A stretch of 64,000 nucleotides of DNA from Muribaculaceae bacterium (lineage in GTDB: Bacteria; Bacteroidota; Bacteroidia; Bacteroidales; Muribaculaceae), in contig JBJECX010000006.1 in assembly GCA_051871535.1 (NCBI GenBank), positions 9,273-73,272 on the forward strand, read 5' to 3'. Shown in pieces: positions 42,988-62,460 of the stretch; position 1 is the first letter of the stretch; each line of letters begins with the position of its first letter. The notes beneath the pieces were generated by a model that saw nothing but the letters and a program-made list of their open reading frames with translations, searched no databases and was not told the DNA's origin. The position numbers were made by a program, and so were the translations under genes.

Positions 42988-43011
42988 TATTTTAGTGCAA
43001 CACCATAGCTG

Positions 43012-44757: not shown

Positions 44758-44778
44758 ATCACTCATTACACCGAATCA

Positions 44779-45300
44779 ATGCAAATCAACGACGAAATAT
44801 TCCGACGTGCCACAGCGGCCGACACCGACCGCTGCTGGCTGATTTTGCAGCAAGGCAAGGCGCAGATGTTCCGCGAAGGCAAACATCAGTGGACCGAAGC
44901 CTATCCCTCGCGCCAAAGCGTGGAGAACGACATTGCCGCCGGCAACGCCTACGTGATTGAGCAACAGGGCACGGTGATTGCCTACGGTGCCGTGATTGCC
45001 AACGGCGAACCTGCCTACCGGCAGATTGCCGACCTGTGGCTCACCAATGCCGACTATGTGGTGGTGCATAGGCTTGCCGTTGCCGACGAAGCCAAACGCC
45101 GCGGCGTGGCGGCGCGTTTCTTCGGCTATGCCGAGCAATGGGCACTGCAGCGCGGCATAACCAGCTTTAAGGTCGACACCAACTACGACAACTTCTATAT
45201 GCAGCGTCTGCTGCGCAGCCAAGGCTTTATGTATTGCGGCGACGTCCACTATCCCCAAGGCGACCGCATGGCATACGAGAAAGTGCTGATGCAAGATTAA
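44779..45300 (+). CDS. GNAT family N-acetyltransferase
   Basis: 173 aa; VVHRLAVADEAKRRGVAARFF acetyl-CoA binding motif. Confidence 0.7.
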   Translation: MQINDEIFRRATAADTDRCWLILQQGKAQMFREGKHQWTEAYPSRQSVENDIAAGNAYVIEQQGTVIAYGAVIANGEPAYRQIADLWLTNADYVVVHRLAVADEAKRRGVAARFFGYAEQWALQRGITSFKVDTNYDNFYMQRLLRSQGFMYCGDVHYPQGDRMAYEKVLMQD

Positions 45301-45377
45301 GTTAAGTACTGCCGAGTTTGTGTGAAAAAGAGTGGGGAAAAGAGGCTCTATTATTTTGTATTTCAAAACTTTATTTA

Positions 45378-45385
45378 TACATTTG
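45378..45385 (+). promoter_or_regulatory. Candidate -7 box TACATTTG
   Basis: TAnnTTTG match ~150 nt upstream of ATG 45539. Confidence 0.3.
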
Positions 45386-45538
45386 CATCATAGCTGCTAA
45401 TGTAGGCCTACACGCAGCACGTTGCCAAAGATATACCCGGCGGCACTGCTCTATGTTTGCACTATATGTTTGCTTTCGATAATAGTATGTAAATAAAAAT
45501 ATCAGATTAGTAAAAACATCTTAAAACCCCATCGCACT

Positions 45539-46066
45539 ATGACACCCACATTAATCATCATCATTGCTGCTGCAGCCATTTTGTTGGTTCTGCTTTTCAT
45601 GTATTTCACCTACAACAACAAGGAAATATACTTGCGCAAAGAGGCAGATGCCCAACGTAAAAAGATTGAGAGCACCCACGACAAAATGTGGAAAGTGATT
45701 AAGCAAAAAGCCGAGGTGAGCGAACAATATCGCGAGGCATTCGAACGCATATACCCCGAATTAATTGCCGGTCGCTACAGCGAAGGCTCGTCGGCAATGA
45801 AGTGGATTCAAGAAGCCAACCCCGACTTCGACACATCGCTCTACAACGACCTGATGCAAGCCATCGAGATTCAGCGCACGCATCTGCACAATGCGCAATC
45901 GCGCATGCTCGACGTGATTCGCGAACGTGCTTCACTCATCGAGAGCTATCCTTCGCGCTGGTTCATCACCAACAAGAGCGAGATTGAATATGAACTGATT
46001 TCGTCGACCAACACCCGTGAGGCAGTAGCCACCCACACCGACGACAACATAGATTTGTTCAAATAA
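45539..46066 (+). CDS. LemA-like single-pass membrane protein
   Basis: N-terminal TM followed by helical repeats. ...QRTHLHNAQSRMLDVIRERASLIESYPSRWFI parallels the LemA C-terminal motif. The match is weak. Confidence 0.4.
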   Translation: MTPTLIIIIAAAAILLVLLFMYFTYNNKEIYLRKEADAQRKKIESTHDKMWKVIKQKAEVSEQYREAFERIYPELIAGRYSEGSSAMKWIQEANPDFDTSLYNDLMQAIEIQRTHLHNAQSRMLDVIRERASLIESYPSRWFITNKSEIEYELISSTNTREAVATHTDDNIDLFK

Positions 46067-46140
46067 TCGCAGTTCAATACGTTTAGCCACCTTGCATGCC
46101 CGGCAAGCACTGCGGGCGGATGCTTTACTCTCACCCACCG

Positions 46141-47295
46141 ATGGCAGCCATTACCTACATATTCATCATTCTGGTGTTCGCCACCATGTGTTATTTCAAC
46201 AACGACAGCGAGCACCTCACCAGCTGTGCAGTTTTATTTGGCATTGTGATGGCGCTCACCGGCCTTGTGCACTATCTGATGCTACGCCATAGGCGTACTG
46301 CCATCGAGTATCTTGGCGGGATAATCGACACCATCACCCACTACGATTCGTGGACCGAGGTGCAGTTATACACCGTAAACGTGCCGGACGGCAAAGACTC
46401 CAACGGACATACCACCTACCGCACCGAAACGCGCGTGCGCTACATCCATCACCCCGACGAATGGTGGTTCCGCACCAGCGTAGGCACCAGGCACGAAATA
46501 TCGCATGCTACATACAATATAATAGCCGCCACATGGAACACCCCGATGTACAATTTCAGCATCACAGGCAGTGCTATTAGCGGCGGCGAACGCTACGGCG
46601 ACGAGTACTATTTCAACGACGTGATTAGGCGCGAAGGCGGCAATTGCAATCCCCTCTACAACCAGGCGCTGACAAGATATATGTTCACCATCACCGAGCC
46701 GCACACCTACGAGAACAAGGTGCAAAACTCCAACTCGATTTTCCGCTTCGAAAAAATAACCGACGACGAAGCCCAAGAGCTGGGGCTGCATCCTTATCCC
46801 GCAATAAACAATTTCGACCAATCGCCCATTTTGGGCAAAAGCATCGACATCAACACCGAGCAGCTAATCAGGGCATTCAATGCCTTTTATGGCCAGGTCT
46901 GCCAAATCAGATTGTATGTGCATCTGTTCGATGCTTCGCAAGGCATCGTAACAGCCGAGAAACAACAAGCCTATTGGAAAGGCGGCAACAAAAACGAGTT
47001 CTCGGTATGCTTGGGGCTCGACGGCAACACCGTGAAGTGGTGCTACACATTCAGCTGGATGGACGAACCCACGCTGGGCGTTATGACCGAGGACTATTTT
47101 CGCCACCATCCCGAGCTCGACCTGAAGTTATTTGTGCAATGGCTTGCCGCCAACATCAATCATTGGAAACGCAAAGAGTTTGCCGACTTCCACTATCTGC
47201 GCGTGCAACTGACACCGGCTCAAACCGCGCTGCTGCTTGCTACCAGCGCCGCCCTATGCGCCGGCGCCGTCTACATTCTTCTCGAAACGATTTAG
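46141..47295 (+). CDS. Hypothetical membrane protein (2 N-terminal TM + 1 C-terminal TM)
   Basis: Start moved to ATG 46141. ~300 aa soluble region between the TM segments. No family recognised. Confidence 0.5.
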   Translation: MAAITYIFIILVFATMCYFNNDSEHLTSCAVLFGIVMALTGLVHYLMLRHRRTAIEYLGGIIDTITHYDSWTEVQLYTVNVPDGKDSNGHTTYRTETRVRYIHHPDEWWFRTSVGTRHEISHATYNIIAATWNTPMYNFSITGSAISGGERYGDEYYFNDVIRREGGNCNPLYNQALTRYMFTITEPHTYENKVQNSNSIFRFEKITDDEAQELGLHPYPAINNFDQSPILGKSIDINTEQLIRAFNAFYGQVCQIRLYVHLFDASQGIVTAEKQQAYWKGGNKNEFSVCLGLDGNTVKWCYTFSWMDEPTLGVMTEDYFRHHPELDLKLFVQWLAANINHWKRKEFADFHYLRVQLTPAQTALLLATSAALCAGAVYILLETI

Positions 47296-47313
47296 GCTAA
47301 TACTACGGCGTGC

Positions 47314-48762
47314 TCACTCGGCATCGGCAGCCGACTGATGGCGATGGCGGTCCATGATGCGATAGCCCGTGGCTGCAACAACTATGCTCATAAGCGGACT
47401 TGCCAGATTGAATACGCAATAAGGCAAATAGGTGAGTGTGGCAACACCAAGCACCGTGCTCTGCACCATGCCGCAAGTGTTCCAGGGAATAAGCACCGAA
47501 GTGACAGTAGCCGAATCCTCAGTGGCACGGCTGAGCACCCGCTGGTCGATGCCCAAGCGACGATAAATGTTGCCAAACACGCTGCCGGTGAGCAGGATGC
47601 TTATGTATTGGTCGGACGTGGCAGTGTTGAGCGTCACACCGGTGAATGCCGTAGAAGCCACCGCCGACACCCTGCCGCGCGCCACCTTGGTGAACAGGCG
47701 CGTGATGCCGTCGGTCATGCCTCCGGCCGTGAGCGTGGCACCGAAGCACATGGCACACAAAATCAGCCACACAGTGGGCATCATGCCGCCCATGCCGCGG
47801 GTAGCCACAAGCTCGGTGAGCATCTCATTTGAAGTGGATATGGCAGTTGAGCCATAAAGCACCTGCATTGAGCCGGCAAACTTGTCGCCACCGGCAAGCT
47901 CCGCAACGATGTCGGGCTGAAAGGCAAGCGCGCATATCACACCCATCACCGACGCCGTGAGCAAAGTCACCAACGCCGGCACTCGCTTCACAATCATCAC
48001 CGCCGTTATTATTGGCACCACCAGCAGCCACGCACTGACGTTGAAACGCATGGCAATAGCTCCACGAAACGCATCAAGCTCGCCCGACGTCACCGCATCG
48101 TGCTGGAATCCCGCCACAACAAACACAATCAAAGCAAGCACAAGCGACGGCACTGTGGTGATGAGCATAAACCGTATGTGCGAAAACAGCCTCACGCCAC
48201 ATATACTCGACGCAAGAATGGTGGTGTCGGACAACGGCGAAATCTTATCGCCGAAATACGCCCCGCTGATTATGGCTCCGGCAATCCAACCCTCGTCGAA
48301 CCCCTGGGCCCTGCCAATGCCCATCAGCGCCACGCCGATGGTGGCAATTGTGGTCCACGAACTGCCCGTCATCACACTCACCGCTGCACTCAGCACGCAT
48401 GTGGTGGCAAGAAACACGTCGGGGCTGATGATGTTCACCCCATAATAAATCATGGTGGGCACCACACCGCCCACCATCCACGAACCTCCAAGCGCACCAA
48501 TCAGCAACAGGATAATCACTGCCGACGACACGCTGGAAATATTCTTGGTGATTGCCGCCTCAAAGTTTCGCCAGGGCACACGGGCGTACACTGTGGCAAT
48601 GATGCAACTCACCGCCGACGCCGCCAACAGCACCACCTGAGTGGCTCCGCTGAGCGAATCGCTGCCAAAGGTGCGGATGGTGACAACAAGCATTGCAACC
48701 AACACCAGCAGCGGAACCACCGAAAGCACAATCGGCATCTGCCGAGTCTTAGTCTTCTTCAT
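47314..48762 (-). CDS. nhaC: Na+/H+ antiporter, NhaC family
   Basis: 482 aa polytopic protein with the sequence pattern of NhaC-type antiporters. Confidence 0.75.
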   Translation of the reverse strand: MKKTKTRQMPIVLSVVPLLVLVAMLVVTIRTFGSDSLSGATQVVLLAASAVSCIIATVYARVPWRNFEAAITKNISSVSSAVIILLLIGALGGSWMVGGVVPTMIYYGVNIISPDVFLATTCVLSAAVSVMTGSSWTTIATIGVALMGIGRAQGFDEGWIAGAIISGAYFGDKISPLSDTTILASSICGVRLFSHIRFMLITTVPSLVLALIVFVVAGFQHDAVTSGELDAFRGAIAMRFNVSAWLLVVPIITAVMIVKRVPALVTLLTASVMGVICALAFQPDIVAELAGGDKFAGSMQVLYGSTAISTSNEMLTELVATRGMGGMMPTVWLILCAMCFGATLTAGGMTDGITRLFTKVARGRVSAVASTAFTGVTLNTATSDQYISILLTGSVFGNIYRRLGIDQRVLSRATEDSATVTSVLIPWNTCGMVQSTVLGVATLTYLPYCVFNLASPLMSIVVAATGYRIMDRHRHQSAADAE

Positions 48763-48824
48763 TCTTCTTCAATTTCCCTTAATTATTTCAATAACCGAAA
48801 TAACACTCTTTTTCAATTGTTTTG

Positions 48825-48832
48825 CAAAGTTA
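48825..48832 (-). promoter_or_regulatory. Candidate -7 box (TAACTTTG on minus strand)
   Basis: Plus-strand CAAAGTTA, 63 nt upstream of the nhaC ATG 48762. Confidence 0.4.
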
Positions 48833-48894
48833 CAACAAACTCCCCACCCCCGCAAATAGCCCCGCCCCTCGACATAAGTCGTTTGCGGAAGATG

Positions 48895-48926
48895 CAGCAG
48901 TCGCGAATCTTGCGGCACTCGCCGGA
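48895..48926. repeat. 32 bp direct-repeat copy 1
   Basis: CAGCAGTCGCGAATCTTGCGGCACTCGCCGGA, identical to 49764-49795. Confidence 0.9.
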
Positions 48927-49093
48927 GGAAAAACACTGCATGAGCCTCTAAGCCAAGCAGGTTTTCTATGCTTGGAAGCATAGCGACGTTGTCGATAACA
49001 ACCGAGTTGATATTGAGGTCGGAAAAGAGAAGTCCATAACTTTCTGATATTTTCAGTGAAGTTATGGACCTTATGATGGTTGTGAAAAGACGC

Positions 49094-49672
49094 TTATTTC
49101 TTAGGAAATTTTGGATTAAGTTTTAAGTTGCTCATGCCTTCGTACCAAGCATTTCTTTTTTCCGGTATAGATTGAATAAAAGGCAAAATATCATCACCAT
49201 AAGCACGACTGGAATAGAAATATAAAACACATGCATTTCTACCGTTAATTGTCATTTGCTTATAATAATGCACATCAACTTCAACAGTATTCATTTTACC
49301 GTTACTACTATCGCTAACAAGAAACTCAAGGATATAATCGCCGTTATTTTCAGCGACCATATATTTAGTAATTGGGTCCGATTTTTTTCTTTCTTCCAAT
49401 TCTGCAACTTTGGCTTGAACCGCTTCTAAAGGCGTTCTATCCCAAAAGATTACACTAACTGTAAACATTTGGTTGTAGTGTTCAAGGGTTTCACCTTTTG
49501 GCAGGTACTCTTGAACAAAATAATTTTCTTGCGGTTGTGCACTCCACACAAGAGAGTATTTTGTTCCGCAGTATTTGATTGGATTTCCGACATTGAAGTA
49601 TTCCGTGGCTGATTGAGCTGACAAACTCAAACAACTCAAAAGAGATATAATAATGGATAATACTACTTTCAT
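49094..49672 (-). CDS. Secreted hypothetical protein (192 aa), low GC
   Basis: Signal peptide MKVVLSIIISLLSCLSLSAQ. No family recognised. Lies between the 32 bp direct repeats. Confidence 0.55.
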   Translation of the reverse strand: MKVVLSIIISLLSCLSLSAQSATEYFNVGNPIKYCGTKYSLVWSAQPQENYFVQEYLPKGETLEHYNQMFTVSVIFWDRTPLEAVQAKVAELEERKKSDPITKYMVAENNGDYILEFLVSDSSNGKMNTVEVDVHYYKQMTINGRNACVLYFYSSRAYGDDILPFIQSIPEKRNAWYEGMSNLKLNPKFPKK

Positions 49673-49763
49673 TTTATATTAGAGTTATATTTCATGGGTG
49701 TAAATATAATCATTCCCAACGAAATATCAACGAAATACTTCACAATCATTCACGGAAAATATA

Positions 49764-49795
49764 CAGCAGTCGCGAATCTTGCGGCACTCGCCGGA
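49764..49795. repeat. 32 bp direct-repeat copy 2
   Basis: Identical 32-mer, same orientation as 48895-48926. Confidence 0.9.
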
Positions 49796-49948
49796 AGCTT
49801 GTTTTACCCTTTTCGAGCGTAGATAAATCGCCAACTTTGTAATGGAAATTTTTCTATCGTGCTTTAGGCTTGCACAATGTTATGTGACAATCAATTCTGT
49901 TAAGCAACAATGACCTTATATTTGGCTTCGCCCTTTCCTTGGCGTTCA

Positions 49949-49975
49949 GCAATGCTCGTGCAAGCACGGCATTGC
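49949..49975. other. 12 bp-stem hairpin in a GC-rich non-coding segment
   Basis: GCAATGC-T-CGTGC AA GCACG-GCATTGC. Confidence 0.6.
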
Positions 49976-50060
49976 ATTCACTGTGGGCGTCAAGTCTTCG
50001 CAGTTTGGACTCAGAGCGGAGAAAGCGGCAATTCTTTGAAAATTGCTCCTCCTCCGCCAC

Positions 50061-50088
50061 ACTAACCTCTAACCAATAACCACTAACC
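50061..50088. repeat. Four tandem heptads NNTAACC
   Basis: ACTAACC TCTAACC AATAACC ACTAACC. Confidence 0.8.
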
Positions 50089-50113
50089 ACGGCGCAGCCG
50101 TTAATTCCACCGC

Positions 50114-50144
50114 AAAAGAAAAAGCCCCGGAGGTATCTCCGAGG
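50114..50144 (-). terminator. Rho-independent terminator (minus strand) ending the upstream part of the array
   Basis: On the minus strand, CCUCGGAG-AUAC-CUCCGGGG is followed by CUUUUUCUUUU. Confidence 0.6.
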
Positions 50145-50392
50145 CAATGCGTTATGGGATTCGTTTTGTCGGATCTCACAAGGCAAGCTCTATTACCACA
50201 TTAGCATACTCTAAATTTGTTTTAGTTAAACCTAGTAGGAAAAAATCAATGATTTTGATAAAAACAAGAGTTGGACATCTTTAAGATATAGGTTCCATGT
50301 GCTGGATTTGCTTGCAATTCAATTATTAGCAATCAGATATTCAGTCACATACATAGCGGTTAAAATATCCTAAATAACTCGCGAAACCGAAG

Positions 50393-51091
50393 TTAAAAAA
50401 CTTTTGCTATATTATAATAAAAACGCAAAGAACAAATAAATGCGTTAATGCCGATAATCATTAATGCAATACCCATTTTATTATATGCACTCGTCAAAAT
50501 CCAGATTAAAAAACACAAAATTGGAGATACAAGTATTATAAAACCTATTAGATATAACCCCAAATACCGAAATACTTTTCTACTCTTCTTATTAACGAAG
50601 CAATAAAAAGAAAAGAAATATACAACTATAAATATTGGCGTGAGAATTGAAGAAATAACCAACGACCAAAAACAACATACAATAAACAATAATAGCATCT
50701 CGACTTTTATCAATTTATTGTTACTCAGATTTTGCAATCTTTTGTATTCGTTAATATTAATGGCAAATAAATACATGGTTCCAATTACAATCAACAGTAA
50801 ATCAACAGGAGTTACAGTACAAATTCCTTGCGAGAAAACTAATGATAGCCCAATAACAAGAAAGCAAAAATAGGCAATAAATATTCTTGGGATAATAGTT
50901 GTTTTACATTCCTTCAAACGAAATACTACAGTTGTCGTTGTAATAATGCACGAAATTAAAAACACAATACCTATTATGGGATTATCTGATAATTGGAGTA
51001 AAAACACTTCACATAATAGTGGCAGACAAATCAAAGAAATGTCTATATACTTATTATTTACAAAAAACTTATTTATAAATGTATGTGCCAT
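50393..51091 (-). CDS. Polytopic membrane protein (candidate immunity protein)
   Basis: 232 aa, ~6 TM, very low GC. Its start overlaps the stop of the upstream gene by 1 nt. Confidence 0.5.
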   Translation of the reverse strand: MAHTFINKFFVNNKYIDISLICLPLLCEVFLLQLSDNPIIGIVFLISCIITTTTVVFRLKECKTTIIPRIFIAYFCFLVIGLSLVFSQGICTVTPVDLLLIVIGTMYLFAININEYKRLQNLSNNKLIKVEMLLLFIVCCFWSLVISSILTPIFIVVYFFSFYCFVNKKSRKVFRYLGLYLIGFIILVSPILCFLIWILTSAYNKMGIALMIIGINAFICSLRFYYNIAKVF

Positions 51092-51636
51092 TATCTCCGC
51101 ATATTACCATAGATATCTTCGATATACATACTATCAACTTCCGCTATACGCTTTTTTGCATAATCTACTGCCTTATAATTGCTTGTAACTTTTCCTTTTT
51201 TAGTATCACTATAACCAGGCATTGAGATTAAGGTAGTATAAAAGCCCCCCTTAGAAAAAGGGATCGCGCTAAATCGGGAACTATCCGTAATATGTACCTC
51301 CCCTTCCCTTCTATAAATTCCAATAAAGTATGTATGTTTTTTTATCGATTTCTCCATTCTTTGCTTAAATGCTTTAGTAGCAAATTTCCAATCGCCCCAA
51401 AATCCTATTGAATCAAGTTCTAACTTTCCATTAAAACCAAGATACACCGGACCCGGCATATGCACCTGCCCCATAAGAATCGCATTTGTTACACTATCTC
51501 CATATACATCTAATAATACTTTTAAAACATTAATCTCATTCTTAACCCAAAAATTAGGACTATGTGTAAGCACACAATTCTGGCTATTACAAACCGAAAA
51601 GCTAAACAAAAATAAGACATATAATAACTTTCTCAT
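51091..51636 (-). CDS. Secreted hypothetical protein (candidate immunity protein)
   Basis: Signal peptide MRKLLYVLFLFSFSVCNSQ. Follows a YD-repeat fragment ORF by 8 nt. Confidence 0.5.
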   Translation of the reverse strand: MRKLLYVLFLFSFSVCNSQNCVLTHSPNFWVKNEINVLKVLLDVYGDSVTNAILMGQVHMPGPVYLGFNGKLELDSIGFWGDWKFATKAFKQRMEKSIKKHTYFIGIYRREGEVHITDSSRFSAIPFSKGGFYTTLISMPGYSDTKKGKVTSNYKAVDYAKKRIAEVDSMYIEDIYGNMRR

Positions 51637-51643
51637 AATAGTT

Positions 51644-52021
51644 TTATTTTTTACACTTATTTAAAATATTTGATAATGTACTTGGAAAGGCGTTCACAGG
51701 CTCCCCATCTTTAGTGACTATGAAGTAGCCACGAAACTCTATTGTGCGAACCTTCGCACCTTCGGCTATGTAGATATACTTTACCTTTCTTCCGTCGGTA
51801 AATGTAATTTCTCCCGGCAAGTTTAGCAAATTGTAGATGATATTCGAGATACCCTTATTGAGGTCTCGCGTCATATTGCCGTTGGCATCGTAGGCGTATT
51901 CTTGCACTTTATTGGCTCCGTCGGTGAAATACATAGATGACACAGTATTCACTTCCTTTGCCGACGATGATGCAAGGTAGCTCATCAGCAGAATGATAAA
52001 TATGTCAACCTTGACATTCAT
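51644..52021 (-). CDS. YD-repeat (Rhs-family) fragment ORF with a hydrophobic N-terminus
   Basis: ATG 52021 gives MNVKVDIFIILLMSYLASSSA..., then YAYDANGNMTRDLNKGISNIIYNLLNLPGEITFTDGRKVKYIY (YD repeats). Only 125 aa. Confidence 0.55.
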   Translation of the reverse strand: MNVKVDIFIILLMSYLASSSAKEVNTVSSMYFTDGANKVQEYAYDANGNMTRDLNKGISNIIYNLLNLPGEITFTDGRKVKYIYIAEGAKVRTIEFRGYFIVTKDGEPVNAFPSTLSNILNKCKK

Positions 52022-52195
52022 GGCTCTTGGGGATTGATGTAATAGCAAAATTATGCATTATATTCCGTTTCGTCAAGAATAACCGCTGAAAATTCAATGC
52101 AAAGCTATGAAGATGAGTGTTTTTTACAATTGCCGGCTACTATGGCATACGCACCCTTAATGAGCATCTCACTCATAACGCCGTGGCAGTGGTTA

Positions 52196-52729
52196 CTATC
52201 CACAAGGAAACTCCCAAAAATCATCCCAGGATGTAAATAAATATAACGCAAACGCAAACGCTTGATTACCCACCACAACAAACTCTATATCCAAACCTCC
52301 GAACTGTTTGATACTAACATCCCAATGGGCAAAAATATGAGAATGTGTCCTTGAAATATATAATGGGTATTCGTCTTCAAGACACATGTAATGAAAGAAT
52401 GGATTGTGTTTATGTCTACCCTCGTCACAATCATTGAATGGCATACAATATGAAGGTGCTCCCCATCTATCGACACATTCTTTCAGTGTCATGCCTTGAT
52501 ATTGTTCTCCGGGAAGGTAAATCATTACCACATCATTTGGCACTTGGTCCAAATCGCGAGTTACAATGTTCCCAAAAAAGTCGTTGGACATTTCGCAGTA
52601 TTTCGCAATTTCAATTGAGTCAGTTTGCTTTTTTGTTAATGTTAAACTCTGTTTACTTCCGCTATTGCATGAATCTAATGTCAAAGCTATCATTAGCAAA
52701 ATGAGAATACCATAATTCATCTTTTTCAT
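52196..52729 (-). CDS. Hypothetical lipoprotein (candidate immunity protein)
   Basis: ATG 52729 gives MKKMNYGILILLMIALTLDSC (lipobox). ATGA overlap with the upstream gene. Confidence 0.5.
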   Translation of the reverse strand: MKKMNYGILILLMIALTLDSCNSGSKQSLTLTKKQTDSIEIAKYCEMSNDFFGNIVTRDLDQVPNDVVMIYLPGEQYQGMTLKECVDRWGAPSYCMPFNDCDEGRHKHNPFFHYMCLEDEYPLYISRTHSHIFAHWDVSIKQFGGLDIEFVVVGNQAFAFALYLFTSWDDFWEFPCG

Positions 52730-53271
52730 AACCTTTTGCATTTTATCACATATGTCATATTGTTATATAGAATAACCCACAAATCAACCTTCGTTTTACC
52801 TTTTAATAACAACGACTTCGTGAATCGTTCACTCAATGCAAGCGATTTATACTGCAACAAACAACCTGAATACTTGTACTTTTCAAGCACTTGCAATATG
52901 TTTTCATCACATTCATTAGCATTTATGTACTCACATTTGCCCTCCTTAAAATCATAGACCGAAATACTTGACATATCAAATTCAAAATATTCATCTAACC
53001 GATTATTTGGGATTTTAATTTCATCACAAGAATTCCTAAAATATCGAACAAAAACACTATCGGGTTTCATATAGAACGCAGTATTTTCTAAAATATCACC
53101 ACCGCTCTTTTCATCATGCAAATCTTGTATTATGGAATTAATCACATCAGAGTTTTCTACAACCGGCTCAATAGTCGTAACACTCTGTTCATCATTTTTC
53201 GTATTATTGCATGATGCAAGAATGCTAATCAGCAGTATTATCAAATATTTGTAATTTTTGCTTACGTACAT
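52726..53271 (-). CDS. Hypothetical lipoprotein (candidate immunity protein)
   Basis: MYVSKNYKYLIILLISILASC lipobox. Low GC. Confidence 0.5.
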   Translation of the reverse strand: MYVSKNYKYLIILLISILASCNNTKNDEQSVTTIEPVVENSDVINSIIQDLHDEKSGGDILENTAFYMKPDSVFVRYFRNSCDEIKIPNNRLDEYFEFDMSSISVYDFKEGKCEYINANECDENILQVLEKYKYSGCLLQYKSLALSERFTKSLLLKGKTKVDLWVILYNNMTYVIKCKRL

Positions 53272-53370
53272 AATAATTTGTTTAATAAGATTTATTTATG
53301 TTTTCTGATGATTGGCTTTTACATACGGTTTTTATTGTTTCATTTTTGAATTATTTTTTCATTACTTCTA

Positions 53371-53979
53371 TTACTTTTTCAAATCTATCCAATCATGAAA
53401 CATATAATAATCACATTTGGTTTTGTTACATTCGAATATAATCCTTGAAGCTGTATATAAATACTCGGGGGTATGGAACCAACTACCATTTTTACGAAAT
53501 GAATATGATATAGAATCCCTGTTCCGAATATTTGTGGTGTCCCATGCAGATATTAATTGCATTCTTTCTATATTTAATCTCGACAAACTATTTCCATTTT
53601 TTTGCATGACTTTTTCATATTTTACACAAGTATCTCTTTTATTCCAAAATATGCTAATACTAAACCCTTCAACACTTTGAGCATCGAGAATGAAAAGTGT
53701 GTCAGAAGATAAATTTATTGGCATAATATCATATAAGCCGGCTCGCATTTTTCTGTAAACAATCTTAAATGAATTTTCATTTGGTGTAGGCATAAAGAAT
53801 TTTATATTACCGGTTTTATATGCCATTTCTTTAAAATCTTGATACATTATACTGTCGAAATATTCTTTTGTCGTAGTATAGTCACTATTTTTACCCTCAA
53901 AAATAGTGGTTTTATCTGTTTTGCAAGAAAATATTACCTGCAAAACAATAAAAACAAAAATATAAAGTAGGTGTTTCAT
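53371..53979 (-). CDS. Hypothetical lipoprotein (candidate immunity protein)
   Basis: ATG 53979 gives MKHLLYIFVFIVLQVIFSC (lipobox). Follows the second YD fragment ORF. Confidence 0.5.
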   Translation of the reverse strand: MKHLLYIFVFIVLQVIFSCKTDKTTIFEGKNSDYTTTKEYFDSIMYQDFKEMAYKTGNIKFFMPTPNENSFKIVYRKMRAGLYDIMPINLSSDTLFILDAQSVEGFSISIFWNKRDTCVKYEKVMQKNGNSLSRLNIERMQLISAWDTTNIRNRDSISYSFRKNGSWFHTPEYLYTASRIIFECNKTKCDYYMFHDWIDLKK

Positions 53980-54079
53980 ATTTATTTGCCTCGTCTTAAT
54001 AAATAATATGTACAAAATGGCGAAAACAAAGATGATTTAGGACATACAGTTTCGTTGTTATAATAACTATAGTGTGTCC

Positions 54080-54379
54080 TCATAGGTATTTTATGCTCTG
54101 CTCGAATCTTGTTTTCAATTGAACATGCGTAAATTTCAGATTTTGTAACAATTGTATTTCTCCCGGCAAGTTTAGCAAATTGTAGGTGATATTCGAGATG
54201 CCCTTATTGAGGTCTCGCATCATATTCCCACTGGCATCGTAAGCATAAGCAGCTGAGAAATCGCCTGCGCCGGTATAAACCGCCTCCACAAGGCGGTCGA
54301 CGCCAGATGCCGACGCATAGTCTCTCCCAAATATGAAGCAACCGAACAACAAGAATAATATGCAAAGGTATCGTTTCAT
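54080..54379 (-). CDS. YD-repeat (Rhs-family) fragment ORF with a hydrophobic N-terminus
   Basis: MKRYLCILFLLFGCFIFG..., then YAYDASGNMMRDLNKGISNITYNLLNLPGEI. Only 99 aa. Shares a 92 bp DNA repeat with 51644-52021. Confidence 0.55.
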   Translation of the reverse strand: MKRYLCILFLLFGCFIFGRDYASASGVDRLVEAVYTGAGDFSAAYAYDASGNMMRDLNKGISNITYNLLNLPGEIQLLQNLKFTHVQLKTRFEQSIKYL

Positions 54380-54445
54380 CGATGAGATTTATGATATTAT
54401 GTCTCACAAATATATCAAAATCAGTATAATTGGCAAAATATATGC

Positions 54446-55078
54446 TCAATAAAACAATAATTGTGCTCTTATGTGTTTTGGTAGTGGTGTATACTTTTTG
54501 TTTGTAAAAACGATTGTTATAAAAAAGCCTTGCCCATATACCCTTAAGCCATAGTCAGTTCTTATTGTAAGGTCGTGATATATATTTGATTCCGCTACAT
54601 TCTCAACCAGCCAGTTGCGTACCGTGAAAATGCTAACGCTCGCTTTTCTTGCCGTCCAATCATCATCTTCGCTGAGTTCAGCTACTGTGCGATAGTTCTT
54701 CGATTGATAGCTAAAGTCATCGCCTGCCTTATAATAATCAATATATATGGTTTTTGCCCCATTCGCATTCTCCTTTCGCGGTTTTGCTTCTCCATATCGT
54801 ACCACCACCAACTCATCGTCTTTAACCCTTTTATCGTGTAATATTATTGGTTTAGCTGTTGGCTTTCCCTCACGGTTCTTCAAATAATAGCGTTTATTTA
54901 GCACTTCGCTAATCGATTCAAATGAGCGAAAGAGCATAAAATCAGAATCAGACAAGGCAGAAAAATTGCTATATTTTAATTGATAGACCCAATTATTATG
55001 GTCATAATCATAACTTGTTTGACATAAAGCTGTTGATACCGATACCAAAACAAGTATTAGTGCATATATTCGTTTCAT
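54446..55078 (-). CDS. Secreted hypothetical protein (candidate immunity protein), paralog of 55098-55757
   Basis: Signal peptide. Shares the block order and the C-terminal ...YTPLP..(I/Y)R motif with the upstream gene. Confidence 0.5.
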   Translation of the reverse strand: MKRIYALILVLVSVSTALCQTSYDYDHNNWVYQLKYSNFSALSDSDFMLFRSFESISEVLNKRYYLKNREGKPTAKPIILHDKRVKDDELVVVRYGEAKPRKENANGAKTIYIDYYKAGDDFSYQSKNYRTVAELSEDDDWTARKASVSIFTVRNWLVENVAESNIYHDLTIRTDYGLRVYGQGFFITIVFTNKKYTPLPKHIRAQLLFY

Positions 55079-55097
55079 ATCTTAAATGCTTTGTGAG

Positions 55098-55757
55098 TTA
55101 CAATATCATTCTGCGATAACGCGTGGGCAACGGAGTGTAATCATCTGATGTATATATGATTATAAAACCATAAGATTTCGTTCCCGCAATATTCCGAACT
55201 CCATCCAACGTCATTACCACCGTCGGATAGTATAGCAATTGCTCTGATAGATGCGAGTGATACCATTTATTCATATACATAATATCATCATATATAACTC
55301 GCAAATGCTTATGTTTTTTGCCAATTTTGTCACACAATTCGCCTAAATCCTCAATTCGGAAAATTGCCAAAGTATCACCACGCTCTTTACCTGTAACATA
55401 CCGATAAATATCAACATTATACCAGGTATCTTTATCGTTCTTTGTTTCCGTGTATTCCACGCAGATTAGTGCATCCCTCTTGAGGGCTTTGCTTTTTATT
55501 ATAATAGGCTTCCAGTTTGGGCGACCAAAATCACCGGTAAAATAACACTTCTTAAAATGGGAATCCTCGTTATTTGATATGGCGCGCAAATCGCCAAATG
55601 CTTTAAACATAACAAAATCTTCAATCATAACACTATCTATGAAATCCACACTTCCTTGCGTGAGTTGTGGAATCATATAGCTGTTTTGAGAAGCAATATT
55701 CATGGCAACGAACAGCATAATACTTAACGCCAAATATTTCAACAGCATACGTTTCAT
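55098..55757 (-). CDS. Secreted hypothetical protein (candidate cognate immunity protein)
   Basis: Signal peptide MKRMLLKYLALSIMLFVAMNIASQ. ATGA overlap with the Rhs toxin ORF stop. Confidence 0.5.
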   Translation of the reverse strand: MKRMLLKYLALSIMLFVAMNIASQNSYMIPQLTQGSVDFIDSVMIEDFVMFKAFGDLRAISNNEDSHFKKCYFTGDFGRPNWKPIIIKSKALKRDALICVEYTETKNDKDTWYNVDIYRYVTGKERGDTLAIFRIEDLGELCDKIGKKHKHLRVIYDDIMYMNKWYHSHLSEQLLYYPTVVMTLDGVRNIAGTKSYGFIIIYTSDDYTPLPTRYRRMIL

Positions 55758-56689
55758 TTCTTTTTAAGTAAATATTTTTTTAACAATGAGTCTGACGTTG
55801 GGGTACTTCCCAATTTATAAGATGAATACAAAGAATTCGCACCATTAGGATAATTGAAATATGAACCAGACTTAAAATTTGCAATCACCGTTTCAAAAGC
55901 TTCCTTATTATAGCCTTCTGTTAACGTCTTAAATGCTTTATTAAAAGCAATTTCTGCCAAATTCGGTGGATCATATTGTTCTGCAATGGACCTTGGTACA
56001 ATATAATACTCAAATGCATAAGCCTCCGCTTCATTATATATAGTTCTTCCACCTCTGCCATTTAAATACTGTGCACAATGAAATGACTCATGCGAAACAT
56101 CAGCTTTAATATCATTTGTCAATTTTATATTAACAGTGTATTCCGACTCGGAATCTTTCACTACTGAGCTCTTGCTATTATTAAATGTAAAATAGTACGA
56201 TTCAGAAGAATTAATTAAGTCAGTAATTAGCCCATTACCATTTTCGTAAACAACGTTTAGTGCCAAAGCCATCTTTTTAGAAATGTCATCTAAATCTAAT
56301 TCAGGCATATATTCATAAATAGAACCATTTGGAAGATAAATAACCTTTCCACTCGGGTCAACGTATTTCACCGGATTTCCGGCGCACCAGAGGTAGGGAC
56401 TGAGACCGTAGTATTTTTCGGATTTAGGGTCCATTGTGGTGGTGCGGCCGAGCAGCGAGTCATACCATCGGGCTTCGGAGTCGTATAGGTCGAGGCCATG
56501 GGTGCGGTCGAGTTCTTTTGCTCCGTATTTATAGGGCTGTACTGCTCCTGCAGTGGTGAATGGCGTGCCGTAGGGATAATAGTCGTTGCTCTCCACCTCT
56601 GCCCCATCTTGGCGCACTACGATGCGCACATTGCCTTGGTAATCCTTGATGTAGTGGTGCAGGTTACTGAATAATTGCCTCGCTTCCAT
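55754..56689 (-). CDS. Orphan Rhs C-terminal module: RHS repeat-associated core + HExxH toxin domain
   Basis: YIKDYQGNVRIVV...DYYPYGTPF...YKYGAKELDRTHGLDLYDSEARWYDSLLGRTTTMDP...SPYLWCAGNPVKYVDPSGK is the Rhs core. It is followed by a ~190 aa tip containing HESFH. A full Rhs protein is >1000 aa. Confidence 0.75.
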   Translation of the reverse strand: MEARQLFSNLHHYIKDYQGNVRIVVRQDGAEVESNDYYPYGTPFTTAGAVQPYKYGAKELDRTHGLDLYDSEARWYDSLLGRTTTMDPKSEKYYGLSPYLWCAGNPVKYVDPSGKVIYLPNGSIYEYMPELDLDDISKKMALALNVVYENGNGLITDLINSSESYYFTFNNSKSSVVKDSESEYTVNIKLTNDIKADVSHESFHCAQYLNGRGGRTIYNEAEAYAFEYYIVPRSIAEQYDPPNLAEIAFNKAFKTLTEGYNKEAFETVIANFKSGSYFNYPNGANSLYSSYKLGSTPTSDSLLKKYLLKKK

Positions 56690-56703
56690 AATTGTCGTTT
56701 TTG

Positions 56704-56711
56704 CAAAGATA
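56704..56711 (-). promoter_or_regulatory. Candidate -7 box (TATCTTTG on minus strand) directly upstream of the orphan Rhs ORF
   Basis: Plus-strand CAAAGATA, 15 nt upstream of ATG 56689. Confidence 0.4.
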
Positions 56712-56877
56712 ACTTATTTCTCGCAAAAATAGAATGACTGAAAGATATGTTGTTGAGCATATGCCATAAGCGCAACACCACCCGGGAGCATTAGCCCACG
56801 GGGCTTAGCCGCAAGCATTGATATAACTTCAATATAACTTCAAAGCACGTATTGTTGCCGATAACACAGCATTTTTG

Positions 56878-56885
56878 TAATTTTG
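56878..56885 (+). promoter_or_regulatory. Candidate -7 box TAATTTTG
   Basis: TAnnTTTG match 28 nt upstream of ATG 56913. Confidence 0.4.
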
Positions 56886-56912
56886 CAATCAACAACAACA
56901 CACAAATCGGAA

Positions 56913-57776
56913 ATGAAGAAACGTAACACAAATAATTTCAAGCAGATGCAACGCCGTGCCGCCGATGTCAAGCGCCGCTTCACGCTGGTGTGCTGGCTCG
57001 CCGTGATTGCACTTGTAACAATCGTTATAGGCAAACATTTCGCGCAGGAGCAACTCAGCACCCCCGAACTGCCCGCCGACGCCACCGAGCAGCTGCAACA
57101 GATTGCGGTGAACGACTCCATAGCCAACACCGTGATAAAATACAAGGCCTACACCGTGTATTTCAACCCCAAGACGCACCAACCAAACGCCACCATCTAC
57201 GAGCTGACCGCCGACGAGACCGAAGGCAACCAGCCGCGAGCCAACAACTTCATTCACGACGAAAACGTGGAAGGATGCGCCCACGCATGGGACTACAGCA
57301 ACTCGGGATACGACCGTGGCCACATGACCCCTGCCGCCGACATGAAGTGGGACGCCGAAGCCATGCAACAATCGTTTTTCATGACCAACATCTGCCCACA
57401 AAACCCGGGACTCAACTCCAACGGATGGTCGCGCCTCGAAAAGAAGATTCGCTCGTGGGCAAAACGCGACAGCTCGCTAATCGTAGCCACTGGACCAATA
57501 CCGGGCGCCACACTCGGCTCGATAGGCAAAGAAGTGACCGTGCCGGTGCCCGAAGCATTCTTCAAGGTGGTTTACGCCCCACGACACGCCCGAGCCATAG
57601 CATTTATCTACGCCAACAACGCCCAGTGCAACAGCAAGATGCGAAAATATGCAGTGACAGTGCGCCAGGTGGAACAACTCACCGGACTAAACTTCTTCGC
57701 CTCACTGCCCGACGACGAAGAAAACCGCATAGAACAGCAATGCGACTTTGCACAATGGGAACAAAACATCAAATAA
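56913..57776 (+). CDS. DNA/RNA non-specific endonuclease (NucA/EndoG-like), membrane-anchored or secreted
   Basis: N-terminal TM FTLVCWLAVIALVTIVIG. DRGHMTPAADM and NICPQ..GLN...W..LE active-site motifs. Confidence 0.8.
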   Translation: MKKRNTNNFKQMQRRAADVKRRFTLVCWLAVIALVTIVIGKHFAQEQLSTPELPADATEQLQQIAVNDSIANTVIKYKAYTVYFNPKTHQPNATIYELTADETEGNQPRANNFIHDENVEGCAHAWDYSNSGYDRGHMTPAADMKWDAEAMQQSFFMTNICPQNPGLNSNGWSRLEKKIRSWAKRDSSLIVATGPIPGATLGSIGKEVTVPVPEAFFKVVYAPRHARAIAFIYANNAQCNSKMRKYAVTVRQVEQLTGLNFFASLPDDEENRIEQQCDFAQWEQNIK

Positions 57777-57789
57777 CACACCACACATC

Positions 57790-59187
57790 ATGTACAGCAA
57801 CGAAAGCACAATCTGCGCCATATCCACCCCTCACGGCACCGGAGGCATAGCCGTGATTCGAATCAGCGGACCACAAGCCATCGACATCGTAAGCCAATGC
57901 TGGAAAGGCGCCCCTATAGCCCACATGGCATCGCACACCGCACACCTGGGCAACATACTCTTTGCCGACGGGCAAATGCTCGACCAAGTGGTGCTCACAC
58001 TGTTTCGCGCACCCAACACATTCACCGGCGAAGACGTAATCGAAATATCGTGCCACGGCTCGGTGTGGATACAGCAGCAAATTGTCAACCGCCTCATCGA
58101 AGCAGGATGCCAAGCCGCCTCAGCCGGCGAATTCACCCGACGCGCTTTCGCCAACCACCGCATCGACCTCTCACAAGCCGAAGCAATAGCCGACGTGATT
58201 GCCGCATCGTCGCGCGCCGCACACCGCATTGCCATCAACCAAATGCGCGGAGCATTCTCACACCAACTCGCCAACCTGCGCGCACAACTGCTCGACTTCG
58301 TCTCGCTCATCGAACTCGAACTCGACTTCAGCGAAGAAGAAGTGGAATTTGCCGACCGCACTCAACTGCTAAACCTCGCCAATCAAATCCTTGACATAAT
58401 CACACGCCTCGCACAATCATTCGCAACCGGAAACGTGATTAAAAACGGACTGCCCGTAGCCATCGTAGGCGAAACAAATGCCGGAAAATCAACCCTGCTC
58501 AACTACCTGCTGCACGACGACCGTGCACTGGTGAGCAACATACACGGCACCACACGCGACGTAATCGAAGACACCATAACACTCGGCGGAACACTCTTCC
58601 GATTCATCGACACCGCCGGCATTCGACACACCGCCGACACAATAGAAGCAATGGGCATTGAACGCACATTCAAGAAAATCAACGAAGCACAACTCGTGCT
58701 TTGGCTAATCGACGGCACAAACCCACCACAACACCTGACACAACTCAGCACCGAAATACTGCCCCACACCACCGGCAAACAACTGCTGGCAGTGGTGAAC
58801 AAAGACGACTGCCTAAACAACACACAACGGCAAGCCATCACAACAACCCTCGCACAACTGCTTCCACCCAACGCAAAACACATCTTCATCTCGGCAAAAC
58901 AGCAAACTGCACTCGACCAACTGCAACAAATCCTCATCGACGCTGCTGCCCTGCCCGAAGCCGACGAAAGCCAAGTGATAGTGACCAACGCACGACACTA
59001 CCAAGCACTCATCAACGCCCGGCAAGCACTGCAACGAGCCATACAAGGCCTCAACGACGGCATCAGCGGCGACTTCGTAAGCCAAGACATACGCGAAACT
59101 ATGCACTACCTCGGCGAAATCACCGGCGAAATCACCACCCACGACATCCTCGGCAACATCTTCGCCCGCTTCTGCATCGGTAAATAG
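57790..59187 (+). CDS. mnmE: tRNA modification GTPase MnmE
   Basis: ICAISTPHGTGGIAVIRISG N-terminus, G-domain GETNAGKSTLLN and DTAGIR, and the C-terminal FCIGK hallmark. Confidence 0.93.
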   Translation: MYSNESTICAISTPHGTGGIAVIRISGPQAIDIVSQCWKGAPIAHMASHTAHLGNILFADGQMLDQVVLTLFRAPNTFTGEDVIEISCHGSVWIQQQIVNRLIEAGCQAASAGEFTRRAFANHRIDLSQAEAIADVIAASSRAAHRIAINQMRGAFSHQLANLRAQLLDFVSLIELELDFSEEEVEFADRTQLLNLANQILDIITRLAQSFATGNVIKNGLPVAIVGETNAGKSTLLNYLLHDDRALVSNIHGTTRDVIEDTITLGGTLFRFIDTAGIRHTADTIEAMGIERTFKKINEAQLVLWLIDGTNPPQHLTQLSTEILPHTTGKQLLAVVNKDDCLNNTQRQAITTTLAQLLPPNAKHIFISAKQQTALDQLQQILIDAAALPEADESQVIVTNARHYQALINARQALQRAIQGLNDGISGDFVSQDIRETMHYLGEITGEITTHDILGNIFARFCIGK

Positions 59188-59229
59188 ACCATCTGACCAT
59201 ACTTGCAAAACGATTTTATAACTGCTTAT

Positions 59230-59453: not shown

Positions 59454-59521
59454 ATGTGATAAAGACTGAGACAAAATCGGGGGTCTTTTCCATCAAAAAA
59501 CATCAGAATTGCAAACGAAAA

Positions 59522-61030
59522 ATGGAGATAATTAAAGAATGTGGAGTATGCGGAAAAGAGTTCGTTGCTTCCAAAATGTCGGTCAAGTACTGCTGTCGAG
59601 GGTGTGAACGTGTCGCATTTCGGAGACGCGAGGCAGAAAAGAAAAAAAGGGAGAAGGAAAATGCCGAATCTCTTCGAAACGCTGAGAGAAATAACTCTCT
59701 GCGTGATAAGGCATTTTTATCCCCCGAGGACGTGAGCGTTCTGTTCGATGTCAGTCTTCCCACAGTGTATCGTTATTTCCAGACAGGCTTAATCAAAGCT
59801 GTAAAGATAAGAAATAAGACCTTTGTGAGATACTCAGACATTGAACGTGTGTTTGATGATGCCACTCCCTATCGGAAAAGACGTTATCAGAGAAAGGAGG
59901 AACAGGAATACTATACTCTCCGGGAAATCATGGAGAAGTACAATATCGGTCGTAAGGCTATATGGGGGCGTTGTGACCGTCTGGGCATCCCCAAGATATA
60001 CGAAGGACGCAACACTTTCTTTAGCAAGAAAGCTATTGACGCACATTTTGCGGATCTCCTTGAAGAGATAGACATTGATAATTATTACACTGCTGACCAA
60101 ATCATGGATATGTATAATATGACAAGGACAGCTGTTATCACTTTTGTGATGCGTCACAAAGTTCCAAGAGTAAACCGTAACGGGAAAGCTTTCTACTCCA
60201 AGGTGCATATTGACTGTATCAAACGCAAGGATGATAGTATCGATCCGGACTGGAGTACCTATGAAGAGGCTATGGAAAAATATGGCATATCAAAAGACCA
60301 AGTAAGTTACACCTTGAAGCATTTTGATGTCAGAACGGAAAAACGTGGAAAGTTTACGATGATATTCCGTACTGACTTTGATAAAGTCATGCGTGAACGA
60401 ATGGCAAATGCAAAAGTAGCAGAAAAGTCAGACGGAGACGAAAAACTTGTTTTCCAAGCTCAACACCAGGAGAAGAAATGCCCACCAACCCCAGATGGCT
60501 ATTATTCAACTGAAGAGGTTGCAGAGATGTTCAAGGTGGGAGTTAAACATGTAGGTGTAATGACCAGGGAGCATAAAACGCCAAAGATTGCACTCAAAGG
60601 ATTCAACTTCTATGAGAAGAAAGCTATAGATGTGCTGTATAATTTGAAGAACAACTATTCAGAAATTACAGACTGGATTACACCGGAAGAGATGCGTTCA
60701 ACATATAAGATGACAGCAGAAGCTGTACGCTCCTTTATCTACCGCCATCAAATTCCCGCAAAGGTGGAGTATGGTACTACCTACTATTCTAAACAGCATA
60801 TCGAACAAGTGAAAAATGGAGATTTTGATGGTCGCGAACGATATTACACTGTCGAGGAGGCAATGAAGAAGTATCATTTATCAAAAGATATAGTTCATTA
60901 TTATGTAAAACGCTATAAAATCACTAAAGTAAAGAAGAAGAAATGCATATATTTCAGAAAAGAAGAGTTCGACAGATTGATGGAAAAACGTCTATCAAAA
61001 GACGATTTACTATCAATTACTCTTGATTAG
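59522..61030 (+). CDS. DNA-binding protein: N-terminal CxxC...CxxC zinc ribbon + seven tandem excisionase/MerR-like HTH modules
   Basis: ATG 59522 gives MEIIKECGVCGKEF..YCCRGC. Seven ~50-60 aa repeats follow the pattern (Y/W)(Y/S)T..E.....Y.........V.......P....G...(F/Y)....(I/F)D. Confidence 0.65.
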   Translation: MEIIKECGVCGKEFVASKMSVKYCCRGCERVAFRRREAEKKKREKENAESLRNAERNNSLRDKAFLSPEDVSVLFDVSLPTVYRYFQTGLIKAVKIRNKTFVRYSDIERVFDDATPYRKRRYQRKEEQEYYTLREIMEKYNIGRKAIWGRCDRLGIPKIYEGRNTFFSKKAIDAHFADLLEEIDIDNYYTADQIMDMYNMTRTAVITFVMRHKVPRVNRNGKAFYSKVHIDCIKRKDDSIDPDWSTYEEAMEKYGISKDQVSYTLKHFDVRTEKRGKFTMIFRTDFDKVMRERMANAKVAEKSDGDEKLVFQAQHQEKKCPPTPDGYYSTEEVAEMFKVGVKHVGVMTREHKTPKIALKGFNFYEKKAIDVLYNLKNNYSEITDWITPEEMRSTYKMTAEAVRSFIYRHQIPAKVEYGTTYYSKQHIEQVKNGDFDGRERYYTVEEAMKKYHLSKDIVHYYVKRYKITKVKKKKCIYFRKEEFDRLMEKRLSKDDLLSITLD

Positions 61031-61112
61031 TACGATTTACTTTCTCTTTACTGAGGTCAACATTGTATCATTTAGGAATTTTGCATCAAAAAACAAATAA
61101 TAATAAAACAAT

Positions 61113-62318: not shown

Positions 62319-62460
62319 AAGCAAAATCACTATGTAAAACGCTGAAACAGAGAAATATAAATAATGTTTAGGGCGGTCATTTTGTTGGTGCTAAATAGTA
62401 GTAAATAGAAGATTTCTCTCTAACTTTGCATTCATAAAACTCGAAAAAAGTACAGTTGCA

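Follow-up and report, generated by a model that had tools for sequence, protein, structure and literature searches.

In a Muribaculaceae bacterium (GenBank assembly GCA_051871535.1), eleven open reading frames (ORFs), here called g1 to g11, lie head to tail on the minus strand between positions 49094 and 56689 of a 64,000-nucleotide (nt) stretch of contig JBJECX010000006.1, which is referred to below as the window. Our analysis indicates that this array is probably a stand-alone, partly decayed island of Rhs toxin remnants and putative poly-immunity genes. Three units were distinguished, each of which would be the leftover of one rhs toxin-immunity locus. Unit 1 would comprise an 88-nt head element, the orphan Rhs fragment g1 with an intact toxin tip, and g2 and g3 as its cognate immunity proteins. 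In unit 2 (g4 with g5-g7) and unit 3 (g8 with g9 and g10) the toxin would have been deleted and an Rhs stub left behind. Transcription would yield a single polycistronic message or a small number of them, ending at 50124-50145. Their exported products would sit in the periplasm and the membranes and neutralise Rhs-delivered, envelope-acting toxins of neighbouring Muribaculaceae, a poly-immunity of the kind described for acquired interbacterial defence (AID) islands. Muribaculaceae are dominant gut bacteria that have been little studied, and to our knowledge little is understood of how they compete with other bacteria.

A first-pass annotation, made from the sequence without database searches, had proposed an orphan toxin/immunity array at this position. 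For g1-g3 this proposal is well supported, since the tip is found on full-length Rhs proteins and co-occurs one-to-one with g2/g3; for g5-g7 and g9-g10 an immunity role is plausible and contextual. The general anatomy that had been described was reproduced by the ORF map. All genes are on the minus strand, closely packed and AT-rich relative to the flanks. The G+C content (GC) is 0.353 across 49094-56689 and about 0.53 outside, with 0.532 at 40000-48866 and 0.542 at 56850-59190. Per-gene values were 0.27-0.41 for ten or eleven array genes, with g4 at 0.43. From g1 to g10 the spacing is -4, 19, 66, 100, 99, -4, 147, 7 and -1 nt, with ATGA/TAATG overlaps and a coding density of 93%, and a gap of 720 nt then separates g10 from g11. 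N-terminal signal peptides were found in g2, g3, g9 and g11, lipoboxes in g5, g6 and g7, and 6-7 hydrophobic segments in g10. The paralogous secreted pair, the lipoproteins, the protein with several membrane segments and the terminator of the first-pass annotation were all recovered, as were the Rhs core with its tip and the two YD fragments.

The g1 toxin tip and its exported partners

The gene g1 (55754..56689, minus strand) encodes an orphan Rhs fragment of 311 amino acids (aa). Its core portion of ~110 residues (56350-56665) ends in NPVKYVDPSGK and is followed by a tip of 198 aa (55757-56349). Residues 37-114 match TIGR03696 (Rhs_assc_core) with an E value of 3e-14 and 53 bits, compared with a curated cut-off of 32.5, and the core carries the PxxxxDPxG cleavage motif of Rhs/YD proteins. 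A profile spanning the core matched the C-terminal plug of solved TcC/Rhs/teneurin-like cocoons (E 1e-9 to 1e-16). Over its full length g1 aligned to the last ~310 residues of DUF6443-Rhs proteins with 33-35% identity (E 1e-43 to 1e-52), beginning at about residue 849 of 1135 in the full-length Rhs alignment. A search with the Rhs core returned fragments of at most 196 aa; such short core homologues are probably a mixture of orphan genes and assembly breaks. The N-terminus of g1, MEARQLFS, derives from the head element, and g1 has neither a shell nor a signal peptide, so the protein could not be delivered. When three full-length Rhs proteins were searched against the 64-kb window by tblastn, only three fragments were detected and no shell. 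The absence of an N-terminal Rhs shell, already stated in the first-pass annotation, was thereby confirmed, and the YD-repeat shell and the N-terminal delivery region of Rhs/YD proteins are both missing from the window.

The tip (residues 114-311) has few close relatives, every one of them in a short protein. When 1.84 billion representatives were searched exhaustively with HMMER, 67 tip relatives were recovered. The larger of these (1122, 1153 and 2070 aa) carry the domain at their extreme C-terminus, and three of the larger relatives contain DUF6443 together with RHS repeats. For neighbourhood analysis 80 metagenome loci with tip relatives were retrieved. The tip family was C-terminal and ended the ORF in all of the ~75 loci examined, in carriers of up to 2830 aa. 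The tip is hence a variable C-terminal toxin domain shared with full-length Rhs carriers.

Across sets of 26 and 8 homologues, H87, E88, H91, Q94, E107 and E109 of the tip were invariant or nearly so. They include an HExxH and an NExE motif, the arrangement of HExxH with a downstream acidic ligand that is found in zincins. Peptidase_M91 was matched at E<=0.01 by 7 of the 26 homologues (best 1.7e-6), and g1 itself gave no Peptidase_M91 match in Pfam and did not reach the gathering score. A model of the tip computed from the alignment with AlphaFold2 had a predicted local distance difference test score (pLDDT) of 89. Its matches in the PDB were weak (best E 0.019, template modelling score ~0.4) and were mostly zinc metalloproteases; by sequence, the tip matched no solved structure. 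We take the tip to be an uncharacterised HExxH zincin-type toxin domain, distantly related to Peptidase_M91 and presumably a peptidase, judging from its conserved residues. A Lysozyme_like assignment (E 0.002-0.003, below the cut-off) was set aside in favour of the conserved HExxH motif. The first-pass annotation had recognised no motif in the putative immunity proteins, and these indeed match no known immunity family; the tip does have a recognisable motif, HExxH with NExE.

Directly after the tip follows g2 (55098..55757, minus strand), a 219-aa exported protein that overlaps the g1 stop by 4 nt. The next gene, g3 (54446..55078, minus strand), encodes an exported paralogue of 210 aa with 26% identity to g2 (E 6e-13). 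Among 5.8 billion proteins g2 is represented by three 90% clusters only. Each of them lies directly 3' of one close tip variant (window, L011, L056), with g3 next in line; in L011, L012 and L056 g3 always stands after g2. Identity among the three variants is 71-74% for the tip and 51-55% for g2; for g3 it is 63% (window versus L011). The module g1-g2-g3 is kept in L011, L012, L056 and in a third metagenome-assembled genome. As in orphan rhs-CT modules, a partial core and a complete tip are followed by a specific small gene. Because g2 and g3 occur only beside the three close tip variants, they are likely to be the cognate immunity pair of the g1 tip. No family was matched by g2, and its structural model (pLDDT 68) had no credible match in the PDB.

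The neighbourhoods of the wider tip family were consistent with this assignment. In nearly all loci the gene after the tip starts -21 to +13 nt from the end of the tip ORF. With a crude predictor, a signal-peptide-like N-terminus was scored in 65 of the 72 genes directly after a tip, compared with 304 of 870 other ORFs. The regular presence of an exported gene after the tip indicates a toxin that would act in the periplasm or envelope and an exported immunity protein. Two exported paralogues (188 aa) also follow the distant full-length toxin of L045.

All seven parent proteins with complete N-termini (7/7) start with a signal peptide, and three parent loci that were inspected had no genes of a type VI secretion system (T6SS) within 6-10 kb. 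The first-pass annotation had pointed to the lack of PAAR, VgrG and T6SS genes. They are indeed absent from the window, but this is no anomaly: it is a property of the family rather than of the locus, because the parents bear signal peptides and have no T6SS nearby. Two parent loci (L045 1427-9462 and L015 1-5736) encode a 351-aa protein without a family, a YD-repeat protein of ~1160 aa and a DUF6443-Rhs protein of ~1150 aa, all with signal peptides. In the literature searched we found no mention of DUF6443. Arrays of the same gene content were observed both after a full-length DUF6443-Rhs gene (L015) and stand-alone (L014). The position directly downstream of a full-length rhs that characterises orphan modules does not apply here, as none was found in the 64-kb window.

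The intact tip ORF raises the question of whether g1-g2-g3 is kept as a toxin-switching reservoir, from which tip and immunity would be grafted onto a full-length rhs elsewhere in the genome. Switching of tips by recombination in the Rhs core has been selected experimentally in Salmonella (PMC3967940; PMC3150448). The ~110 core residues retained by g1 have 61% protein identity to a full-length Rhs of another organism and are 80-94% identical to many metagenome core fragments, and the tip ORF is intact in unit 1 and lost in the other units. Against such a role speak the absence of a full-length rhs from the 64-kb window and the fact that units 2 and 3 have no tip to donate. As an account of the whole array we regard a reservoir as possible, though not probable. 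In the preferred reading of a decayed island with poly-immunity, the g1 tip may serve as a silent reservoir as well, recombinable onto a full-length rhs through core homology.

Rhs stubs and reused gene blocks

The second and third units each begin with an Rhs stub. The gene g4 (54080..54379, minus strand) encodes a 99-aa protein in which a signal-peptide-like N-terminus is joined to a YD-repeat piece (Rhs ~687-741), and it heads g5-g7. The gene g8 (51644..52048, minus strand) encodes a 134-aa protein with a hydrophobic N-terminus and a YD piece (Rhs ~691-774), matches the YD_repeat model and heads g9-g10. Together the two stubs cover residues ~687-774 in alignments with full-length Rhs proteins, and they share a 92-nt repeat with 91% identity (54156-54247 in g4, 51807-51898 in g8). 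Both derive, like g1, from Rhs genes.

Behind g4 lie three lipoprotein genes, all on the minus strand and all candidates for orphan immunity genes. The products are g5 (53371..53979; 202 aa, lipobox IFSC), which matched no family, g6 (52726..53271; 181 aa, lipobox LASC) and g7 (52196..52741; 177-181 aa). The likely start of g7 is at 52729, which gives a 4-nt overlap with g6. We compared the array content across strains, as the first-pass annotation had recommended, and found the g4-g7 and g9-g10 blocks reused in other loci. On other contigs the complete series g4-g5-g6-g7 lies between yebC and serS, where its proteins are 91-100% identical to those of the window. The same stub precedes g5 in L001, L004 and L144-L149. 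The pair g6-g7 is fixed, as the two genes stood together in 10 of the 10 contigs carrying g6. In L002, L003 and L005 this pair is downstream of a different Rhs core and tip, and in L002, L003 and L007 a 114-aa gene lies 5' of it.

The block behind g8 consists of g9 (51091..51636, minus strand), a 181-aa exported protein or lipoprotein and candidate orphan immunity protein, and g10 (50393..51091, minus strand), a 232-aa membrane protein with 6-7 hydrophobic segments that may confer immunity against a membrane-acting toxin. L136 and L137 carry a copy of the 1392-bp g9-g10 cassette (50308-51699) with 98.9% identity. In these contigs it stands before greA and is preceded by an Rhs core stub that breaks off at DSEAR, and also by a Peptidase_M91 tip fragment that has a lipoprotein of its own. 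The junction with g8, at about 51699, coincides to the nucleotide with the junction in those contigs, lies 62 nt ahead of the g9 start and is read in different frames. In L002 g9 is absent between a g8 remnant and g10. In all arrays that carry it (L002, L003, L136-L143) g10 is the last gene. The small genes of units 2 and 3 stood beside Rhs debris in every context seen, and an immunity role of g5-g7 and g9-g10 is plausible on these contextual grounds.

The same observations bear on the view that the small genes are unrelated accessory envelope proteins gathered in a hot spot, with the Rhs pieces as incidental pseudogene debris. It agrees with this view that the chromosomal site of the array, between nhaC and an endonuclease gene, carries unrelated low-GC cargo in relatives, and that g5-g7, g9 and g10 have no family, no fold and no adjacent toxin. 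The blocks, however, accompany Rhs fragments in every independent context seen, g2 and g3 distribute one-to-one with the tip, and this toxin family as a rule has exported partners. We consider such an incidental assembly unlikely.

Still less likely, in our judgement, is that the truncated Rhs modules are themselves active. In that case the 349-aa form composed of signal peptide, core and tip would export the toxin to its own periplasm or into vesicles, and the downstream genes would protect the producer. This idea arises from three proteins of 349/346 aa (P0002, P0004 and P0013) that belong to the same 90% cluster as g1 and represent the most common form of the module. They begin with a signal-peptide-like segment right before the core, fused directly to core plug and tip as a kind of "mini-Rhs", and the stubs g4, g8, L137_94 and L145_56 have similar signal-peptide-like starts. 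The g1 of the window, however, has no signal peptide, and a deletion of the repeat-rich shell inside a signal-peptide-bearing rhs gene would leave the same pattern. We infer that the signal-peptide stubs are what remained after such deletions.

A small array with a recognised immunity family was seen in two other Muribaculaceae contigs, where Imm-NTF2-2 stands beside an Rhs core stub (L145 295-717 and L148 457-879). As this array lies near another one, several arrays per genome are possible.

Chromosomal setting, expression and neighbouring elements

The array is framed by ordinary core genes, namely an NhaC-type antiporter gene (47314-48762) on one side and, on the other, a non-specific endonuclease gene (56883-57776) that is divergent from the array, followed by mnmE (57748-59187). 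Host-like sequence starts again at or before 48866 and at or after ~56847, from which a size of ~8 kb follows for the island. Near-identical proteins carry names that assign the contig to Muribaculaceae. Where related species and strains were compared, the interval from nhaC to the endonuclease gene was occupied by other low-GC cargo, unrelated to the array. We observed there a 1258-aa helicase-like protein with a 597-aa partner (L022 1954-7732), which is possibly a defence system; an AAA_14/DUF4143 ATPase with a beta-lactamase-like protein and an acyltransferase (L020 480-10000); and the end of a restriction/methylase-like gene (L051 3-554). The site is a strain-variable hot spot. A prophage origin had been named as a finding that would refute the first-pass annotation. 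The array had no DNA similarity to any of 50,697 phage records or 72,556 plasmid records, and searches of the small proteins against Pfam, NCBIfam, PHROGs and PADLOC matched no immunity, phage or defence family.

At the 5' end of the array lies the promoter-like head element of 88 nt (56675..56762, minus strand), which supplies the ATG and the first ~8 codons of g1. It holds a Bacteroidetes -7-type box (TAtcTTTG) and may act as a promoter; the transcript would then start ~7 nt after TATCTTTG, at about 56705-56710. In the window the element is present as a single copy. Copies with 90-97% identity were found ~40 nt upstream of g6 in seven contigs (L002, L003, L005-L009), and an exact scan of the metagenome collection with the 88-nt element gave no match. 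In other contigs a variable-number tandem repeat, TTGGCAAATA (1-3 copies), is located 5' of the element. The protein P0003 has the same MEAR start codons as g1, with its Rhs junction 104 codons earlier.

The transcript of the array likely ends at an intrinsic-terminator-like hairpin (50124-50145, minus strand) with 9 pairs, 7 of them G-C, and a following T-run, TTTTTCTTTT. The same terminator sequence is found at the nhaC-endonuclease locus of strain L051, 3' of the unrelated restriction/methylase-like gene. In assemblies of pig-gut metatranscriptomes, g4-g7 were present in one contig of 2.26 kb, and g1-g3, g10 and g11 were also detected, in unstranded contigs that may include DNA. One metatranscriptome contig (run X30) joins position 50023 to 56369 and skips 6345 nt, with one side supported by 30 nt. 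It connects the spacer after the terminator to the core/tip boundary of g1 and may represent a different form of the array or a misassembly.

Between g11 and the terminator (49800-50120) the DNA is non-coding and richer in GC, and it gave no RNA family match. Pieces of this region (49995-50043 and 50106-50145) reappear in L049 and L051 in rearranged order. Scanning for Rfam families and tRNAs gave no meaningful hit, either in the whole window or in the spacer 48763-50392.

The last gene, g11 (49094..49672, minus strand), encodes a 192-aa secreted protein, and its segment lies between 38-nt direct repeats (48889-48926 and 49758-49795), of which 32 nt are exact where 0 would be expected by chance. 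A precomputed Pfam match assigns g11 to PF27161 (HI_0983). The cassette 49031-49784 was also found in L048, in an unrelated context beside a periplasmic-binding-protein gene, which together with the repeats suggests that the segment moved by site-specific or repeat-mediated recombination. As g11 lies past the terminator, has its own repeats and travels independently, it is probably a separate cassette and a neighbour of the array. The first-pass annotation had listed it as the final secreted protein of the array; the protein is present and secreted, but it is probably not a member.

The first-pass annotation had also stated that the window contains no recombinase. This was incorrect, as a tyrosine integrase of 401 aa with an arm-binding domain is encoded on the plus strand at 61113-62318, though in a separate element beside mnmE. 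This second low-GC element (59456-64000) starts directly after mnmE and runs past the end of the window. It encodes a 524-aa multi-HTH_17 protein, the integrase, a 231-aa membrane-type protein and a 127-aa excisionase-like protein, and looks like an integrative element attached at the mnmE 3' end. We rejected the integrase as the recombinase of the array: it is 4.4 kb off, beyond two GC-rich core genes, it forms a unit with the multi-HTH and excisionase-like genes, and it points away from the array.

The published recombinase-associated AID (rAID-1) islands are defined by a co-directional 5' XerD-like recombinase, at least two downstream co-directional genes with GC <=41% and intergenic repeats (10.1101/471110; PMC12247911), with a recombinase threshold of at least 44% identity to BF9343_RS08045 (10.1101/471110). 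Orientation and GC of the array agree with this definition. The 5' neighbour of the array is the divergent endonuclease gene and not a recombinase gene. No family of intergenic repeats was found, and apart from the 92-nt pair derived from Rhs and the 38-nt pair around g11 there are no repeats. On the position of the recombinase and the missing intergenic repeats, membership in rAID-1 was ruled out. That the cassettes were taken up in an integron-like manner by a dedicated tyrosine recombinase is therefore very improbable, even though two of the published features are present (short genes of one orientation with GC <=41% in the genome of a gut Bacteroidales) and the window does hold a tyrosine recombinase, since no co-directional recombinase lies 5' of the array, the integrase belongs to the separate element beyond mnmE, no intergenic motif is repeated, and related arrays (L001, L011, L014 and L136) also lack an adjacent recombinase.

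Assessment and relation to known systems

Several points weigh against reading the array as a decayed toxin and poly-immunity island. For g5-g7 and g9-g10 no adjacent intact partner toxin was found in any context seen, and none of the small proteins resembled a recognised immunity family or fold. Within the close tip clade no known carrier exceeds 415 aa, and so no matching attacker was seen. In a profile-profile comparison g2/g3 had no similarity to the two exported L045 proteins (probability 0.2%). The promoter was assigned to the head element from its motif, and the metatranscriptome contigs are supportive only. We nevertheless favour the island, which accounts for the toxin tip with its strictly co-occurring partners and for the stubs with their reused blocks.

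Together with its relatives, the locus suggests that an Rhs pathway relying on signal peptides in place of a type VI apparatus is widespread, and strains seem to retain and exchange protective blocks after loss of the weapon. More tentatively, they could represent a type of poly-immunity island in Muribaculaceae that is independent of a recombinase and descends from decayed Sec-exported, T6SS-independent DUF6443-Rhs loci, with a portable 88-nt promoter head, reshuffling in hot spots, and the tip with g2/g3 as a new envelope-acting family; we put this forward as a conjecture that may well prove wrong. Orphan toxin/immunity arrays as such are already established, and the novelty here lies in the lineage and the type of the parent Rhs, in the families of toxin and partners, and in a mosaic architecture without a recombinase. 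Besides one intact zincin tip and the two proteins that are candidates for its immunity, the locus offers five more exported proteins. Such proteins could serve to study how toxin/immunity repertoires affect strain coexistence in pig, mouse and human guts.

Among known systems, the array resembles the orphan rhs-CT/rhsI modules of Enterobacteria (PMC3150448, PMC3967940) in having a truncated rhs with a partial core and a complete tip, an immunity gene directly after it, and several modules in a co-directional low-GC row. The enterobacterial orphans lie directly downstream of a T6SS-linked full-length rhs, and their toxins are mostly cytoplasmic (PMC3150448, PMC3967940). Here, in contrast, the window has no main rhs, the parents are signal-peptide DUF6443-Rhs proteins without a T6SS nearby, all partners are exported and two units have no tip. 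With AID-1 and rAID-1 islands (10.1101/471110; PMC12247911) the array shares a row of orphan immunity-type genes with skewed GC on a gut Bacteroidales chromosome, and both are strain-variable and present in metatranscriptomes. Unlike these islands, the array lacks intergenic repeats and a XerD-like recombinase next to it, lies outside any conjugative element and contains no gene that matches a T6SS immunity family, and toxin remnants including an intact tip are interspersed among its genes.

A structural likeness exists to the TcB-TcC/Rhs cocoons (TccC3, YenC2, Rhs), as the g1 core matches their C-terminal plug, and the parent loci recall a split TcB-TcC in pairing a YD protein of ~1160 aa with an Rhs protein of ~1150 aa. 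The window, however, holds only the last ~110 cocoon residues, so that no capsule can form, and no TcA-like or T6SS partner was seen. The tip itself is comparable to Peptidase_M91 (NleD/HopH1-type) and zincin toxin domains, with which it shares the HExxH motif, a downstream conserved glutamate and the C-terminal position on a polymorphic toxin. M91 effectors act inside eukaryotic cells, whereas the exported partners of the tip described here point to the bacterial envelope.

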